Part shown: positions 6,455-51,961 of the stretch, one piece after another | Layout of the letters: each line of letters opens with the position of its first letter | Numbering within the stretch: the stretch's first letter is position 1 | Made by a program: the position numbers and the translations under genes | Notes under the pieces: model-generated | The model's database searches: none | The model's input: the letters and a program-made list of their open reading frames with translations, nothing else | What the model was told of the DNA's origin: nothing | Source: Escherichia coli | Lineage (GTDB): Bacteria > Pseudomonadota > Gammaproteobacteria > Enterobacterales > Enterobacteriaceae | Assembly (NCBI RefSeq): GCF_003018255.1 | Contig: NZ_CP027440.1 | Length of the DNA stretch: 64,000 nucleotides | Strand: one strand, 5' to 3'

Positions 6455-6700
6455 AGGCGGCGCAGTTGCGCCGCCTCAAATGATTTACATAGTGCGCTTT
6501 GTTTATGTCGGATGCGGCGTGAACGCCTTATCCGGCCTACAAAACTGTGCAAATTCAATATATTGCAGGAAAAACGTAGGCCTGATAAGCGAAGCGCATC
6601 AGGCAGTTTTGCGTTTGTCAGCAGTCTCAAGCGGCGCAGTTACGCCGCCTTTGTAGGAATTAATCGCCGGATGCAAGGTTCACGCCGCATCTGGCAAACA
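6455..6700. repeat. BIME/RIP-type cluster of REP palindromes (katE-chbG intergenic)
   Basis: Hairpin GAGGCGGCGC...GCGCCGCCTC at 6455-6478; canonical REP units GGATGCGGCGTGAACGCCTTATCCGGCCTAC (about 6510-6545) and inverted copies at about 6578-6607 and 6663-6697; central segment resembles an IHF-site-containing RIP element. Confidence 0.8.
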
Positions 6701-13656: not shown

Positions 13657-13757
13657 TCACGCCGGATGCGGCGTGAACGCCTTACTCGACCTACAAAACT
13701 ATGCAAATTCAATACATTGCAGGAGTCGAATAGGCCTGACAGGCGTAGCACGTCAGA
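13657..13757. repeat. BIME/RIP-type REP cluster (nadE-cho intergenic)
   Basis: REP unit GCCGGATGCGGCGTGAACGCCTTACTCGACCTAC and inverted partner AATAGGCCTGACAGGCGTAGCACGTCAGAC; central segment near-identical to the one at 6540-6580. Confidence 0.8.
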
Positions 13758-22384: not shown

Positions 22385-22400
22385 TGCAGGGTTCGTGCCA
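22385..22400 (-). promoter_or_regulatory. sigma-54 (-24/-12) promoter of astCADBE
   Basis: Minus strand reads TGGCACGAACCCTGCA, with GG and GC at the consensus spacing, about 75 bp upstream of astC. Confidence 0.75.
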
Positions 22401-22756
22401 GCCAGTGATAAAAGTGCATAAATCGCGGAGGCTAACTGGAAATCAAGGAGTTATAACCAAACATATGCATTTAAAGTGCATATAAAGTGAATACGTTTGC
22501 GATGTGGGTGAATAAAAAGAATAAAAAACGCAATGTTATGCAGAAGTGAAATATAATTCTGAAATTGTGATCATTGACGAAATTTACTGGAAATTACTGC
22601 GCCATTCTGACGCAACGCGCACCAAAAGCGGGCATTTTTTGCGCCATCGTTGACATCATTAACAACCATCGATCAAATCACTTAACAACAGGCGGTAAGC
22701 AAAGCGAAATTCTGCTACCATCCACGCACTCTTTATCTGAATAAATGGCAGCGACT

Positions 22757-40998: not shown

Positions 40999-41640
40999 AT
41001 GCACCCTCGCGCCCTGTTACTGGTCGATTTACAAAATGATTTCTGTGCTGGTGGCGCGCTCGCCGTGCCGGAAGGTGACAGTACGGTGGATGTCGCTAAC
41101 CGCCTGATTGACTGGTGCCAGTCGCGCGGTGAAGCGGTTATCGCCAGTCAGGACTGGCACCCGGCGAATCACGGCAGTTTTGCCAGTCAGCACGGTGTAG
41201 AGCCTTATACGCCAGGCCAACTCGACGGTTTGCCACAAACCTTCTGGCCAGATCACTGTGTGCAGAACAGTGAAGGCGCACAATTACATCCGTTACTGAA
41301 CCAAAAAGCGATCGCAGCGGTGTTCCATAAAGGCGAAAATCCTTTAGTTGACAGTTACAGTGCCTTTTTTGATAACGGCCGTCGGCAGAAAACCACGCTC
41401 GATGACTGGTTACGCGATCATGAAATCGATGAATTGATCATTATGGGTCTGGCTACTGACTATTGCGTGAAGTTTACCGTGCTGGACGCGTTACAGTTAG
41501 GTTATAAGGTTAATGTGATTACCGATGGTTGTCGTGGCGTGAATATCCAGCCACAGGACAGTGCGCACGCGTTTATGGAGATGTCAGCAGCTGGGGCAAC
41601 GCTATATACGCTGGCAGATTGGGAAGAGACGCAGGAGTAA
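40999..41640 (+). CDS. pncA: nicotinamidase/pyrazinamidase
   Basis: ORF 40981-41640; start at ATG 40999 with RBS aaggaga; isochorismatase-fold, 213 aa. Confidence 0.9.
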   Translation: MHPRALLLVDLQNDFCAGGALAVPEGDSTVDVANRLIDWCQSRGEAVIASQDWHPANHGSFASQHGVEPYTPGQLDGLPQTFWPDHCVQNSEGAQLHPLLNQKAIAAVFHKGENPLVDSYSAFFDNGRRQKTTLDDWLRDHEIDELIIMGLATDYCVKFTVLDALQLGYKVNVITDGCRGVNIQPQDSAHAFMEMSAAGATLYTLADWEETQE

Positions 41641-41800
41641 TATTAGTTGGATTCATCTCTGGCCTACATTTCCTCAATGACATTGTAGGCCAGGTAATAC
41701 TTGTTAGTGTTGCATTTAACCTACTCGCAGCTAAAACACGACATCCGAACAAGTCTATTTGCCCTCCCTTAATAACAGGCTTAAATACTAGACAACTCAT

Positions 41801-44874: not shown

Positions 44875-44883
44875 GTATCAACA

Positions 44884-45782
44884 TCACACCATATCCAGCG
44901 CAGTTTTTCCTTTTGGTGCCGGATATGCCTTATCCAGCATAGCTAATTCCGCTGATGAAAGTTCGACCTCAAGCACAGCCGCATTTTGTTGGACATGGGT
45001 AATCGTGGCCGCTTTTGGAATCGCCATCACACCCTGATGGCTGATTACCCACGCCAACAATACTTGTGCCGCGCTGATATTGTGAGCATGTGCAATTTCG
45101 TTGACTACCGCGTTTTTTAACAGCCCATTGCGCAACCGCCCGGCCTGGGCTAACGGACTGTAAGCCATCACCGGCATCTGCTGTTTCTGGCACCAGGGAA
45201 GTAGATCGTACTCAATCCCTCGTGAACCGAGATGGTAAAGCACCTGATTAGTGGCACACTGATTCCCCCCGGCAGCTGCCAGAGTTCCTGCATATCGGCA
45301 TAATCAAGGTTAGAAACGCCCCAGCGGCGGATTTTTCCCTGGGCGATCAATTTTTCCATCGCTGCGACAGTCTCTTCAAAAGCGAAACTGCCAGACCAGT
45401 GTAATAAGTAGAGATCGAGATAATCAGTATTGAGACGGCGTAAACTGGCTTCGCATGCATTTATCGCTTTTTGCCCGCCAGCATTCCACGGATAGACTTT
45501 AGAGACGAGAAAGACGTTCTCACGCAGGCCGGTTAATGCTTCCCCAACCACCATTTCGGCACCGCCATCGGCATACATTTCGGCGGTATCAATGAGGGTT
45601 AAACCGAGTTCAATGCCCGCGCGTAGTGCAGCAACTTCTGTTTTACGCTGACTGGCATCTTCGCCCATATACCATGTTCCCTGCCCTATGGCTGGCAGTG
45701 AGACATCGCCACTAAATTGAATCATTTTTTGTTGCATTGCTTCCTCCCAGGTATTGCACCACCGTAATGCAAAACAGGGCAT
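44884..45782 (-). pseudogene. yeaE: aldo-keto reductase YeaE disrupted by -1 frameshift in a G6 (plus-strand C6) homopolymer
   Basis: Two consecutive minus-strand ORFs (45168-45782 and 44884-45243) each carry one half of an AKR; reading frame switches at plus-strand CCCCCC 45265-45270; adding one G restores ...QLPGGNQCATNQVLYHLG... Confidence 0.7.
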
Positions 45783-45826: not shown

Positions 45827-46573
45827 TCAGAATTTGTAGGTGATCCCGGTAGAAATCAGGCCAGTCCAGGATTTATCCACCATTGGGCTGTCAGTAACTT
45901 CATCAGACAGACGGGTGTAGCGCGCGGTACCGTAAACACTCCAGTCACCGAGGAAGTTGTAGCTGGCGCTCAGCTCCAGGTAAGGGCTCCAGCTGTCGTT
46001 CGGGTTATAGCCACGCAGACCGCTGCGAGCGGACTCTTTGCGCGATACGCCATAATAGTATTCGTTCTGGTTTTCGCTGTTCCACTGCACACCAATACCC
46101 GGAGTCACGGTCAGGCCACCGTTGGTGTAACGATACAACCAGGCCATATCCCAGACGATGCCGTTGCTGTTATCCAGGGTATCGCCAGCCAGGGTGGTAC
46201 GCAGGTAACCGTACTGGGTAAAGTGAGCATAAGACAGACCAGCCATCATGGTGCTCTTACGGTCATCCAGGTGACGCATTTGGTGATCGCCACTGTCTTT
46301 AGCTTTGAAGTAAAGCGGCGACCAGTAAGCGGTAATTGAAAGTTTGTCCGTTGCGTCATTCCACAGGTAGTAACCACCACCTAAGCCACGGAACCAGAAG
46401 TTATCGCCGTCATAGTTGATTACCGGTACTGGGTAAACATCGGTATCGTAATCTTTATATGGGTGTTCAACGACACCTACGCCTGCGCCCAGGGAAAATT
46501 TACCTTCAGCGTGCGCTACGCCTGCAGACGTTGCGATAAGCACTCCAAGTGCCAGAAGTTTGAGTTTGGTCAC
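45827..46573 (-). CDS. mipA: MltA-interacting outer membrane scaffold protein MipA
   Basis: 248-aa ORF with signal peptide and C-terminal aromatic residue (ITYKF). Confidence 0.9.
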   Translation of the reverse strand: MTKLKLLALGVLIATSAGVAHAEGKFSLGAGVGVVEHPYKDYDTDVYPVPVINYDGDNFWFRGLGGGYYLWNDATDKLSITAYWSPLYFKAKDSGDHQMRHLDDRKSTMMAGLSYAHFTQYGYLRTTLAGDTLDNSNGIVWDMAWLYRYTNGGLTVTPGIGVQWNSENQNEYYYGVSRKESARSGLRGYNPNDSWSPYLELSASYNFLGDWSVYGTARYTRLSDEVTDSPMVDKSWTGLISTGITYKF

Positions 46574-46889
46574 AATTAATCATTCCTTAAACAAATGTTT
46601 AGCGGGCGACAAAGTTTACCCGTCAATACATCGAAACCCAACCTTTTTACGTTTTCATTTTTTATAGTAACTGTTTAATTTTCCTGACGCAGATGACACC
46701 ACTCTTACAGCCAAATGAATTTAGCGTTACTGGCGACCCTGGTCTTTACATTAATTATGCAAAATTTATGGATGAGTTGTTGATATGCCATTGAAATTAA
46801 GAAAGCCGTGCAGGCAAGTTTTCCATTTGCCATCTACGCTTAATTTTGAAGGTGTATCACCGGGCACGTTGTTCTCATCGTCGATAAAA

Positions 46890-46905
46890 TGGCATGAGAG
46901 TTGCT
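46890..46905 (+). promoter_or_regulatory. sigma-54 (-24/-12) promoter-like element upstream of yeaG
   Basis: TGGCATGAGAGTTGCT: GG and GC at the consensus spacing, about 100 bp upstream of the yeaG ATG. Confidence 0.6.
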
Positions 46906-47008
46906 GTGTTTTAGCAAGAGACGTCGTTCAGTTTACCTCTTCCGGGAGCCTCTACTATTCATATGAACGGCTCTTAACCTGTGCTAAAAAACGAAAGGAC
47001 GGCATACC

Positions 47009-48943
47009 ATGAATATATTCGATCACTATCGCCAGCGATATGAAGCTGCCAAGGACGAAGAGTTCACACTGCAGGAGTTTCTTACCACTTGTCGGCAAGA
47101 TCGCAGTGCTTATGCCAACGCGGCTGAGCGGCTATTGATGGCTATCGGTGAGCCTGTCATGGTCGATACAGCCCTGGAACCCAGACTTTCTCGACTCTTT
47201 TCTAACCGGGTCATTGCACGTTATCCGGCGTTTGAAGAGTTTTACGGCATGGAAGACGCGATTGAACAGATTGTCTCTTATCTGAAACACGCGGCTCAGG
47301 GGCTGGAAGAGAAGAAACAAATTCTGTATCTGCTGGGGCCTGTGGGTGGGGGTAAATCATCGCTTGCTGAGCGACTGAAATCATTAATGCAGCTCGTACC
47401 GATTTATGTATTGAGCGCCAACGGTGAGCGTAGCCCGGTCAACGATCATCCGTTCTGTCTTTTCAATCCGCAGGAAGATGCGCAGATTCTGGAAAAAGAG
47501 TATGGCATTCCTCGCCGTTATCTCGGCACCATCATGTCGCCGTGGGCGGCAAAACGCCTGCATGAATTTGGTGGCGATATCACTAAGTTCCGGGTAGTGA
47601 AGGTCTGGCCGTCAATTCTGCAACAAATTGCTATCGCCAAAACGGAACCCGGTGATGAGAACAACCAGGACATCTCCGCGCTGGTTGGGAAAGTCGATAT
47701 TCGTAAACTCGAACACTACGCGCAGAATGACCCGGACGCCTACGGCTATTCCGGTGCATTGTGCCGCGCCAACCAGGGGATCATGGAATTCGTTGAGATG
47801 TTTAAAGCACCGATTAAAGTGCTGCATCCCTTGCTAACCGCCACTCAGGAAGGTAACTACAACGGGACGGAAGGTATCTCCGCCCTGCCGTTCAACGGGA
47901 TTATTCTCGCCCACTCGAACGAATCCGAATGGGTCACTTTCCGTAATAACAAAAACAACGAAGCCTTCCTCGATCGTGTTTACATCGTGAAGGTGCCGTA
48001 TTGCTTGCGCATTTCCGAAGAGATCAAAATCTACGAGAAATTGCTTAATCACAGTGAATTGACTCACGCCCCCTGCGCCCCTGGCACGCTGGAAACGCTG
48101 TCACGTTTTTCCATTCTTTCGCGCCTTAAAGAGCCAGAAAACTCCAGCATTTATTCAAAGATGCGGGTTTATGATGGCGAAAGTCTGAAAGACACAGATC
48201 CCAAAGCCAAGTCGTATCAGGAATATCGTGACTACGCCGGTGTCGATGAAGGGATGAACGGTCTGTCGACGCGTTTTGCGTTTAAGATCCTCTCCCGCGT
48301 GTTCAACTTCGATCATGTAGAAGTGGCGGCAAACCCGGTTCATCTGTTCTACGTCCTGGAACAGCAGATCGAGCGCGAGCAGTTCCCGCAAGAACAGGCA
48401 GAACGCTATCTGGAGTTCCTGAAAGGTTATCTGATCCCGAAATATGCCGAGTTTATCGGCAAAGAGATCCAGACGGCCTACCTTGAATCCTATTCCGAAT
48501 ATGGGCAAAACATTTTCGACCGTTATGTTACCTACGCGGATTTCTGGATTCAGGATCAGGAGTATCGCGATCCTGATACCGGGCAGTTGTTTGACCGCGA
48601 GTCTCTTAACGCCGAGCTGGAGAAAATCGAGAAACCGGCGGGGATCAGTAATCCAAAAGATTTCCGCAACGAGATTGTTAACTTCGTACTGCGCGCCAGA
48701 GCGAATAACAGCGGACGCAATCCGAACTGGACCAGCTATGAAAAACTGCGCACGGTTATTGAGAAGAAAATGTTCTCCAATACCGAGGAGCTGTTGCCGG
48801 TTATTTCGTTTAACGCCAAAACGTCAACCGACGAGCAGAAGAAACATGACGACTTTGTCGACCGTATGATGGAAAAAGGCTACACCCGTAAACAGGTGCG
48901 TTTACTGTGCGAATGGTATTTGCGCGTACGTAAATCGTCTTAA
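47009..48943 (+). CDS. yeaG: PrkA-family serine protein kinase YeaG
   Basis: 644-aa ORF with Walker A (GPVGGGKSS) and PrkA family sequence. Confidence 0.9.
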   Translation: MNIFDHYRQRYEAAKDEEFTLQEFLTTCRQDRSAYANAAERLLMAIGEPVMVDTALEPRLSRLFSNRVIARYPAFEEFYGMEDAIEQIVSYLKHAAQGLEEKKQILYLLGPVGGGKSSLAERLKSLMQLVPIYVLSANGERSPVNDHPFCLFNPQEDAQILEKEYGIPRRYLGTIMSPWAAKRLHEFGGDITKFRVVKVWPSILQQIAIAKTEPGDENNQDISALVGKVDIRKLEHYAQNDPDAYGYSGALCRANQGIMEFVEMFKAPIKVLHPLLTATQEGNYNGTEGISALPFNGIILAHSNESEWVTFRNNKNNEAFLDRVYIVKVPYCLRISEEIKIYEKLLNHSELTHAPCAPGTLETLSRFSILSRLKEPENSSIYSKMRVYDGESLKDTDPKAKSYQEYRDYAGVDEGMNGLSTRFAFKILSRVFNFDHVEVAANPVHLFYVLEQQIEREQFPQEQAERYLEFLKGYLIPKYAEFIGKEIQTAYLESYSEYGQNIFDRYVTYADFWIQDQEYRDPDTGQLFDRESLNAELEKIEKPAGISNPKDFRNEIVNFVLRARANNSGRNPNWTSYEKLRTVIEKKMFSNTEELLPVISFNAKTSTDEQKKHDDFVDRMMEKGYTRKQVRLLCEWYLRVRKSS

Positions 48944-49043
48944 CAACCCTGGCCCGGTACACATGCTACCGGGCCTACAACGACAGCGAACCGTGGGCCA
49001 GAGAAGCGGCAACACAGGCGTAGCATAAAGTTGGCAAATGTAG

Positions 49044-50339
<1,296 letters not shown>

Positions 50340-50485: not shown

Positions 50486-51961
50486 ATGATTCGGTCAACA
50501 CGTATTTCCCTGGGGTTATTCTTTAATTATTTTTTATCGTTAACGAAAATTGATCCTGGTCAAAACTATATATCTCTGCCATCAATAAAATCCAGCACTC
50601 ACATTGCTCTCCTTTTTATGGCTTCTATGGGTACACAAAAATTAAAAGCTCAAGGCTTTTTTATTTTCAGCTTATTGCTGACGTTAATTTTATTTTGCAT
50701 TACTACCTTATATAACGAAAACACGAATGTAAAACTCATCCCACAGATGAATTACCTGATGGTTGTTGTGGCTTTGTTTTTCCTTAACGCCGTCATTTTC
50801 CTTTTCATGTTAATGAAGTATTTCACTAACAAACAAATTTTACCAACACTCATTTTAAGCCTTGCATTTTTAAGTGGCCTTATCTATTTAGTTGAAACCA
50901 TTGTAATTATCCATAAACCAATCAACGGCAGTACACTGATCCAGACAAAGTCGAATGATGTTTCTATTTTCTATATTTTCCGCCAACTCAGTTTCATTTG
51001 TTTAACCTCGCTGGCGCTCTTTTGTTATGGGAAAGACAACATCCTTGACAACAATAAGAAGAAAACTGGCATTCTGTTGCTGGCGCTGATTCCTTTTTTA
51101 GTTTTTCCCCTTCTGGCACACAATCTGAGCAGTTATAACGCTGACTATTCTTTGTATGTCGTCGATTACTGTCCGGACAACCATACTGCGACCTGGGGAA
51201 TCAACTATACAAAAATATTGGTTTGTTTGTGGGCATTTTTACTGTTCTTTATTATCATGCGTACACGATTAGCCAGCGAACTATGGCCGTTAATAGCATT
51301 ATTATGTCTGGCATCGCTATGCTGCAACTTACTTCTACTGACTCTGGATGAGTATAATTACACCATCTGGTATATCAGTCGCGGGATTGAAGTTTCCAGT
51401 AAACTGTTTGTTGTGTCTTTTCTGATTTATAACATTTTTCAGGAACTGCAACTCTCCAGCAAACTGGCAGTTCATGATGTACTGACCAATATTTATAATC
51501 GGCGCTACTTTTTCAACAGCGTAGAGTCATTATTGTCGCGACCTGTTGTTAAGGACTTTTGTGTCATGCTGGTTGATATTAATCAGTTCAAACGCATCAA
51601 TGCCCAATGGGGACATCGTGTGGGTGATAAAGTGCTGGTATCAATTGTCGATATTATCCAGCAAAGCATCCGCCCCGATGATATTTTAGCGCGACTGGAG
51701 GGTGAGGTGTTTGGCTTGCTATTTACCGAACTCAATAGTGCCCAGGCAAAAATCATTGCGGAACGTATGCGTAAAAATGTCGAACTCCTGACCGGCTTTA
51801 GTAACAGATATGATGTTCCTGAGCAAATGACCATCAGTATTGGCACGGTTTTTTCAACGGGTGACACACGTAATATCTCGCTTGTCATGACGGAAGCAGA
51901 TCAAGCCTTACGCGAAGCGAAAAGCGAGGGGGGCAACAAAGTGATTATTCATCATATTTAA
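50486..51961 (+). CDS. yeaI: membrane-bound degenerate GGDEF protein (EGEVF variant) YeaI/CdgI
   Basis: 491-aa ORF; N-terminal multi-TM domain, C-terminal GGDEF fold with RLEGEVFGL in place of GGDEF; AT-rich. Confidence 0.85.
   Translation: MIRSTRISLGLFFNYFLSLTKIDPGQNYISLPSIKSSTHIALLFMASMGTQKLKAQGFFIFSLLLTLILFCITTLYNENTNVKLIPQMNYLMVVVALFFLNAVIFLFMLMKYFTNKQILPTLILSLAFLSGLIYLVETIVIIHKPINGSTLIQTKSNDVSIFYIFRQLSFICLTSLALFCYGKDNILDNNKKKTGILLLALIPFLVFPLLAHNLSSYNADYSLYVVDYCPDNHTATWGINYTKILVCLWAFLLFFIIMRTRLASELWPLIALLCLASLCCNLLLLTLDEYNYTIWYISRGIEVSSKLFVVSFLIYNIFQELQLSSKLAVHDVLTNIYNRRYFFNSVESLLSRPVVKDFCVMLVDINQFKRINAQWGHRVGDKVLVSIVDIIQQSIRPDDILARLEGEVFGLLFTELNSAQAKIIAERMRKNVELLTGFSNRYDVPEQMTISIGTVFSTGDTRNISLVMTEADQALREAKSEGGNKVIIHHI

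Follow-up and report, generated by a model that had tools for sequence, protein, structure and literature searches.

Upstream of yeaG, in a 64,000-nt stretch of Escherichia coli DNA (the window), lies a short motif that resembles a sigma-54 promoter, and it raises the question of whether the yeaG-yeaH kinase module is tied through it to nitrogen-starvation control by NtrC, as a first-pass annotation of the sequence had proposed. Our results indicate that the motif is very probably the known sigma-54-dependent promoter of the yeaGH operon. The promoter and the place of yeaGH in the NtrC regulon are already documented (EcoCyc and several ChIP and expression papers), and for that reason the result carries little weight as a discovery. 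The biology of YeaG and YeaH in nitrogen starvation is actively studied, and the points of interest at this locus are how NtrC is recruited without a recognizable enhancer and whether the tandem promoters described below interfere with each other; either answer would refine, not overturn, the present picture.

The argument starts from two genes, one promoter element, and one predicted transcription start:

47009-48943, plus strand: yeaG, an open reading frame encoding a PrkA-family AAA+/Ser-Thr kinase, named yeaG in E. coli genome annotations
49056-50339, plus strand: yeaH, an open reading frame with a Pfam DUF444 match (3e-191)
46890-46905, plus strand: TGGCATGAGAGTTGCT, sigma-54 -24/-12 promoter element, assigned from a consensus match, published ChIP, and conservation
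46916, plus strand: predicted sigma-54 transcription start (A), from geometry (12 nt past the C of the -12 GC), giving a 93-nt 5' UTR

Identity of the window to the best complete E. coli genomes is 99.1 to 99.4%, and 5425 of 5426 such genomes have matches to it. Pfam matches bear out the assignment of YeaG as PrkA-like (AAA_PrkA, 7e-187; PrkA, 9e-71) and of YeaH as a DUF444 protein, and in published accounts the two genes form one cotranscribed operon (including PMC10954441 and PMC6299236). The mipA gene (45827-46573, minus strand) adjoins the yeaG promoter region, and the intergenic region between mipA and yeaG (46574-47008) has a GC content of 39.8%, compared with 50.1% across the window, so that its earlier description as AT rich holds. 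The "436-bp leader" of the first-pass annotation exists as a spacer, although of 435 bp, and not as a leader: transcription would cover no more than about 93 nt of it if begun at the sigma-54 start, and about 160 nt if begun at a sigma-S start. A 75-codon open reading frame at 46785-47012 (plus strand) spans the leader and ends within the yeaG start region; we read it as noncoding because its orthologs show indels.

The element itself shows the GG-N10-GC spacing of sigma-54 promoters, its GG being at 46891-46892 and its GC at 46903-46904, and it lies 119 bp 5' of the yeaG ATG, oriented toward yeaG. It matches TGGCAYG-N4-TTGCW with no mismatch, is the sole exact match to this consensus on either strand of the 64-kb window, and is the only plus-strand GG-N10-GC of the mipA-yeaG intergenic region; the exact spacing claimed for it from the letters alone is thus confirmed. 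The predicted start at 46916 is at -93 relative to the AUG, in agreement with the distance of 93 nt given by Bonocora (PMC4591121) and with the boundary of the yeaG 5'-UTR fusion of McQuail 2023, which runs from -93 to +63 (PMC10954441); the 93-nt distance and the 93-nt UTR are themselves predictions. The literature available for the search contained no rpoN- or glnG-dependent 5'-end mapping at 46916.

Published occupancy data cover exactly this site. In E. coli, sigma-54 ChIP-Seq peak OS18 carries the motif ATGGCATGAGAGTTGCT on the plus strand, with a predicted start-to-yeaG distance of 93 nt (Bonocora 2015, PMC4591121); its fold-above-threshold value is 6 and its PSSM score is 10.57, and EcoCyc lists the promoter as predicted (PMC4591121). 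Sigma-54 ChIP-chip in Salmonella identified the identical 16-mer upstream of STM1285/yeaG, with a ratio of 4.1 and a PSSM score of 21.5 (Samuels 2013, PMC3844500). The K-12 and Salmonella STM1285 promoter yeaGp is therefore the same locus with the same 16-mer and the same 93-nt distance, and the window is 99.4% identical over the region; compared with K-12, it differs in a few flanking single-nucleotide polymorphisms and one base of the hairpin loop discussed below, and in nothing of substance. yeaGH is also among the 21 NtrC ChIP-Seq targets in nitrogen-starved cells (Brown 2014, PMC4066584). The NtrC peak (1864821-1864901, 12.1-fold) coincides with the yeaG sigma-54 motif, an enrichment comparable to that of sites for which the gel-shift assays of that study were negative, and for Ntr control of yeaGH the table of the same paper points to an earlier expression analysis (PMC4066584). 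The yeaG mRNA rises 36-fold 20 min past ammonium run-out (Figueira 2015, PMC4664914), and at nitrogen run-out NtrC and RNA polymerase are both present on the yeaGH region. A 2018 review describes adjacent E-sigma54 and E-sigma38 promoters at yeaGH (PMC6299236), and the operon is handled as NtrC activated across several papers (including PMC4066584 and PMC10954441). The proposed tie of YeaG and YeaH to sigma-54 and NtrC is thus supported by ChIP in two species, the NtrC peak, the 36-fold induction, the review, and the conservation footprint.

Conservation was assessed in 80 yeaG loci, one per species, by use of the pattern TGGCA-N6-NTGCN upstream of yeaG. The motif was found in 24 of 32 Enterobacterales loci, 94 to 242 bp 5' of the yeaG ATG, in genera that include Escherichia, Citrobacter, Enterobacter, Kosakonia, Erwinia, and Pantoea as well as Serratia, Rahnella, Brenneria, Dickeya, and Tatumella. 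All 25 sequences, drawn from 24 species, have TGGCA and GTTGCT without a single change, while the spacer between them occurs in 9 variants and the flanks show 30 to 50% identity, and we read such invariant -24/-12 blocks amid drifting spacer and flanks as the signature of a selected element. Of 5424 E. coli genomes, 4327 share the 50 bp surrounding the motif without any difference. The motif was missing from 7 other Enterobacterales loci compared; among the loci without it are those of Edwardsiella, two species of Yersinia, one Pseudocitrobacter genome, and two genomes labeled "Enterobacter"; one further Enterobacterales locus (L016), which came without upstream sequence, was left unscored. 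It was also absent from all 49 loci of Vibrionaceae, Shewanella, Aeromonas, Alteromonas, Pseudoalteromonas, and Rheinheimera, and a relaxed sigma-54 motif search in these 49 non-Enterobacterales loci gave no credible site. In two Pantoea insect symbionts, L030 and L031, the motif is visibly decayed (TGGCATAAGGGTTTCT and TGGCCTAAGGAGTTTG) with yeaG intact, a pattern consistent with relaxed selection for nitrogen-starvation control in symbionts restricted to a host.

Further upstream, two conserved features suggest that the sigma-54 promoter does not act alone:

46833-46843, plus strand: TCTACGCTTAA, sigma-S-type extended -10, from a consensus match (C-13, T-12, A-11, T-7, and a TAA discriminator)
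46771-46798, plus strand: GATGAGTTGTTGATATGCCATTGAAATT, conserved upstream block, from an anchored comparison, at -145 to -118 relative to the sigma-54 start

The putative sigma-S promoter is placed here from consensus and conservation. Its -10 hexamer is TACGCT at 46835-46840, with a start expected near 46847; TCTACGCTTAA fits the type KCTAYRCTTAA and sits 56 bp upstream of the sigma-54 element. Of the 24 orthologs with the sigma-54 motif, 22 also have a CTAnnnT-type -10 in the corresponding place, 47 to 109 bp before the -24 element; it is lost in P. stewartii, and the scan did not include Pseudocitrobacter. The spacing between the two is 47 to 61 bp in Enterobacteriaceae, about 80 bp in Erwinia, Pantoea, Serratia, Brenneria, Dickeya, and Tatumella, and 109 bp in Rahnella. 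Edwardsiella and "Ca. Pantoea persica," which are without an intact sigma-54 motif, still have a similar -10. The conserved block at 46771-46798 is palindromic in Serratia (AGTCATTGATATGACT) and bears no resemblance to an NtrC site in a comparison with the consensus; its distribution follows that of the sigma-S promoter rather than that of the sigma-54 element, since Edwardsiella has the block without the motif and Pantoea stewartii the reverse. The conserved sigma-S-type -10 fits the published RpoS dependence of yeaG in Salmonella, where 5730 reads in the wild type compare with 26 in a delta-rpoS strain and the 5' noncoding region is likewise RpoS dependent. As expression of the operon in stationary phase is about 220-fold RpoS dependent, part of the induction seen in nitrogen starvation could be due to sigma-S. 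The conserved tandem of sigma-S and sigma-54 promoters therefore suggests that the operon responds to both RpoS and NtrC.

A sigma-54 closed complex cannot start transcription by itself. At yeaGH, sigma-54 RNA polymerase, whose binding has been shown by published ChIP, would recognize the -24 GG and -12 GC at 46890-46905 and wait there in a closed complex, unable to initiate alone. On nitrogen starvation, phosphorylated NtrC would open the complex by using ATP, as the published occupancy and induction suggest, and transcription would begin at about 46916, a position derived from promoter geometry that agrees with the published 93-nt UTR; we infer that this start depends directly on NtrC and RpoN. 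The resulting transcript would carry a 93-nt leader bearing a conserved stem-loop and the published SdsR pairing site and would run through yeaG, across a REP-like stem-loop without a U-tract, and into yeaH. The sigma-54 promoter would be the downstream member of a conserved tandem pair in which the sigma-S-type promoter, with its -10 at 46835-46840 and 56 bp upstream, would provide general-stress and stationary-phase expression.

That the motif is a chance match without function deserves negligible probability. An exact match to the consensus did occur at least once in 9 of 100 shuffles of the window (0.09 expected), but the element has the correct orientation and distance to yeaG, its -24/-12 blocks are invariant across 24 species while the flanks diverge, and occupancy by ChIP in two species, together with this conservation pattern, refutes the idea. 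A different reading accepts binding and doubts that initiation is its main consequence: closed E-sigma54 at about 46882-46911, or +35 to +64 of the sigma-S start, might act as a brake that impedes sigma-S transcription when NtrC is inactive, with initiation being secondary. The sigma-54 element does lie inside the conserved sigma-S transcribed region, and the distance between the two promoters is conserved (47 to 61 bp in Enteropbacteriaceae, about 80 bp for most of the other families). A Salmonella yeaG promoter-lacZ fusion showed no rpoN dependence, a result that speaks against the main reading and that its authors attributed to the other promoter; consistent with a brake, reporter activity in delta-rpoN was "as high as or higher" than in the wild type (PMC3844500). 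There is also a precedent in relA, where E-sigma54 at P4 antagonizes the adjacent sigma-70 promoter P2 (PMC4066584), and Bonocora et al. emphasize that initiation may never occur at many sigma-54 sites (PMC4591121). However, with the constitutive, promiscuous activator DctD250, yeaGH expression was 2.5-fold higher in wild-type Salmonella than in delta-rpoN, so that the promoter can fire (PMC3844500), and at nitrogen run-out the region is bound by both NtrC and RNA polymerase while yeaG mRNA rises 36-fold. We consider a role mainly as a brake improbable, and braking and initiation are not mutually exclusive in any case.

How NtrC reaches the promoter bears on a further alternative, namely, that yeaGH is sigma-54 dependent without a dedicated NtrC enhancer and is activated by phosphorylated NtrC from solution or from weak sites, possibly with Lrp, or by another enhancer-binding protein. 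In favor of this, neither E. coli nor any conserved position in the 24 orthologs yielded a canonical NtrC site, the NtrC ChIP signal is weak (PMC4066584), and DctD250, although without a DNA-binding domain, drives yeaGH (PMC3844500). Likewise, yeaG appears in a published list of direct targets common to Lrp and sigma-54, with Lrp binding being condition dependent. On the other side, consensus scans miss degenerate sites, as the astC sites with their 4 mismatches each illustrate; NtrC ChIP-Seq gave a called peak at yeaGH, and several papers regard the operon as NtrC activated; and we found no evidence for any other activator. An arrangement without a dedicated enhancer seems doubtful. NtrC may reach yeaG through weak sites, act on it from solution, or be helped by Lrp. 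Combining the two ideas, the locus might be a two-way switch in which closed E-sigma54 damps sigma-S expression and fires without an enhancer on starvation, through phosphorylated NtrC from solution or noncanonical sites and possibly Lrp, with the tandem being conserved in most Enterobacterales and absent from other gammaproteobacteria that have yeaGH; we regard this as quite unlikely. The preferred reading is that of an NtrC-responsive sigma-54 promoter.

The enhancer search itself used the NtrC consensus TGCACC-W4-TGGTGCA, taken from PMC4987338, after an earlier scan with TGCACYN5RGTGCA at up to 3 mismatches, and was gauged against a promoter within the window:

22385-22400, minus strand: CTGGCACGAACCCTGCA, astC sigma-54 promoter, Bonocora OS17 (PMC4591121), a known NtrC/sigma-54 promoter

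No canonical NtrC site was present in the 316 bp upstream or the approximately 400 bp downstream of the yeaG motif. The best NtrC-like 17-mer upstream has 5 mismatches in 17 positions, no better than chance would give (0.36 expected per 300 positions), the downstream stretch held no better one, and TGCACCN5GGTGCA at 3 mismatches or fewer gave nothing at a conserved position in the 24 orthologous upstream regions. The same scan found two adjacent NtrC-like sites at 22598-22634, about 200 to 235 bp upstream of the astC promoter, with 4 mismatches each, and the recovery of this enhancer pair indicates that the method works. The check that the first-pass annotation had proposed, for enhancer sites 80 to 150 bp upstream of the yeaG element, was thus negative for canonical sites. 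The peak coordinates of Brown cannot locate an enhancer, since the peaks coincide with sigma-54 motifs (glnK, gltI, glnH, ddpX, and argT), and we rejected them as enhancer positions because they are low-resolution promoter marks (PMC4066584). A dyad close to the NtrC consensus, TGCACCACCGTAATGCA, lies between yeaE and mipA (45755-45771), 1.1 kb upstream and beside the mipA terminator; it was dismissed as coincidental, with 0.69 such matches expected and at least one in 48 of 100 shuffles.

Among the closest known systems, glnAp2 resembles yeaG in its -24/-12 element (TTGGCACAGATTTCGCT), NtrC occupancy by ChIP, and induction under nitrogen limitation; strong NtrC dyads lie near -140 and -108 of glnAp2. 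The ast operon is reportedly also sigma-S dependent, a result credited to Kiupakis and Reitzer in 2002, and has the same dual nitrogen and stationary-phase logic. In contrast to glnAp2, yeaG is without recognizable dyads, and its ChIP signal is 6-fold weaker (12 versus 71, PMC4066584). astCADBE shares with yeaG a sigma-54 motif and the status of an NtrC target (PMC4591121, PMC4066584) and differs from it in the recognizable NtrC-like pair about 200 to 235 bp upstream. At relA P4/P2, as at yeaGH, a sigma-54 promoter stands beside a promoter for another sigma factor, with proposed interference (Brown 2014, PMC4066584); the NtrC site of relA was confirmed by gel shift (PMC4066584), whereas both the NtrC site and the interference at yeaG are putative.

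The predicted leader of the sigma-54 transcript contains two further features:

46944-46975, plus strand: conserved 5'-UTR stem-loop, in which GGGAGCC (46944-46950) pairs with GGCTCTT (46969-46975)
46978-46987, plus strand: CCTGTGCTAA, SdsR sRNA pairing site, -31 to -22 from the AUG (McQuail 2023, PMC10954441), with coordinates converted from the ATG at 47009

In single-sequence folds with an anchor-based count, the stem keeps 4 to 7 of its 7 pairs in 23 of 23 orthologs and at least 5 in 22 of them. The loops, of 7 to 34 nt, are nonhomologous between families, and two-sided changes occur in the stem in Dickeya and Tatumella. Alignment of the 5' UTRs by MAFFT, followed by RNAalifold, yielded no common structure, with the variable loops misaligned, and an Rfam scan of the whole window gave no match within the yeaG leader or the yeaG-yeaH spacer. 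The stem terminates 5 to 9 nt 5' of the SdsR pairing site, and the sequence block of that site is kept in nearly all Enterobacterales orthologs.

Between the two genes of the operon, the first-pass annotation had placed a hairpin that may set their expression ratio:

48951-48975, plus strand: stem-loop GGCCCGGTA-cacatgc-TACCGGGCC, 9-bp stem, REP-like

The hairpin is present exactly there, with a folding energy of -16.8 kcal/mol, and begins 7 nt past the yeaG stop codon. The energy of the whole yeaG-yeaH spacer is not unusual (z = -0.9); the local stem alone is strong. We rejected it as an intrinsic terminator, since it is without a U-tract (the stem is followed by TACAACGACAGC), and no terminator-like site was called on the plus strand in 48944-49055. 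Its tail, TACCGGGCCTACAA, is of the GGCCTAC type of REP tails and lies 2 mismatches from the REP tail TATCCGGCCTACAA at 6529. At the same place, other Enterobacteriaceae have longer REP-like palindromes, such as GCCCGGTGGCGCATGCGCTTACCGGGC, and across genera the stem shows a compensatory change from GGT/ACC to GGC/GCC (U-A to C-G). A canonical inverted REP (GTAGGCCGGATAAGCG...GCATCCGGC) comes next in several relatives and is decayed in the window and in K-12; beyond Enterobacteriaceae, the intergenic sequences are unrelated. Within E. coli, the stem is kept in 5424 of 5426 genomes.

Intercistronic stems can protect the upstream mRNA or affect translation near a stop codon; intercistronic REPs stabilize the upstream mRNA, and within about 15 nt of a stop codon they can reduce upstream expression. 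The likeness of the yeaGH hairpin to REP/BIME elements such as that of malE-malF consists in a GC-rich imperfect palindrome within an operon, the ...GGCCTACAA tail, and the inverted REP partner in relatives; in contrast to these elements, it is single copy in E. coli by BLAST, shorter, and not annotated as a REP in the MG1655 RefSeq. A multicopy REP was rejected because each of 5424 E. coli genomes had a single matching site, even with E values up to 10 allowed, in a BLAST search of limited sensitivity (a 40-mer against a 28-Gb database) that could miss divergent copies. Pattern searches of the fetched loci likewise placed the hairpin at the yeaG-yeaH site only. Owing to its single copy by BLAST, we call it REP-like and not a REP family member.

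Whether this hairpin matters for expression is evenly balanced, with about an even chance that it is a decayed REP/BIME relic without a regulatory role. A relic is suggested by the second REP of the pair, intact in some relatives and decayed in the window and K-12, and by the unrelated intergenic sequences outside Enterobacteriaceae. The near-universal retention of the stem in E. coli, the compensatory change across genera, and its position only 7 nt after the stop codon argue instead for a function, for example, as a barrier at the mRNA 3' end or as a ribosome-proximal structure that would lower YeaH relative to YeaG. In a delta-sdsR strain, YeaG rises about 1.8-fold and YeaH about 2.1-fold, together (PMC10954441), which indicates that the hairpin does not uncouple the two. 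For a stem of this sort, an effect on the YeaG:YeaH ratio, as the first-pass annotation had suggested, is a plausible proposal.

Several observations elsewhere in the window may be of use to others. At 51841-51856 (plus strand), inside the 3' end of cdgI (yeaI) and about 120 nt before the next gene, TGGCACGGTTTTTTCA is one spacer base from the confirmed sigma-54 motif of glnHp2, TGGCACGATTTTTTCA; it is absent from the sigma-54 site tables in the main text of Bonocora (PMC4591121). The yeaE gene (44883-45737, minus strand) has a 1-nt deletion compared with the closest E. coli genome, a T missing before a C-run at about 45263 (plus strand), and its split into two open reading frames reflects either a pseudogene or a sequencing error. 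The distance from astC to yeaG is about 10 kb shorter than in K-12, with the centers of the sigma-54 motifs 24.5 kb apart here and 34.7 kb apart in U00096.2. The pncA-yeaC junction lies at about 41600-41800, and the closest complete genome has pncA followed directly by yeaC; K-12 carries the ydjE-ydjL cluster between these two genes. Two Rfam matches to ES036 (CssrF sRNA), at 6541-6583 and 13695-13737 (plus strand), each directly follow a canonical REP, GCCGGATGCGGCGTGAACGCCTTATCCGGCCTACAA, and are probably REP/BIME-associated sequence and not independent sRNA genes.
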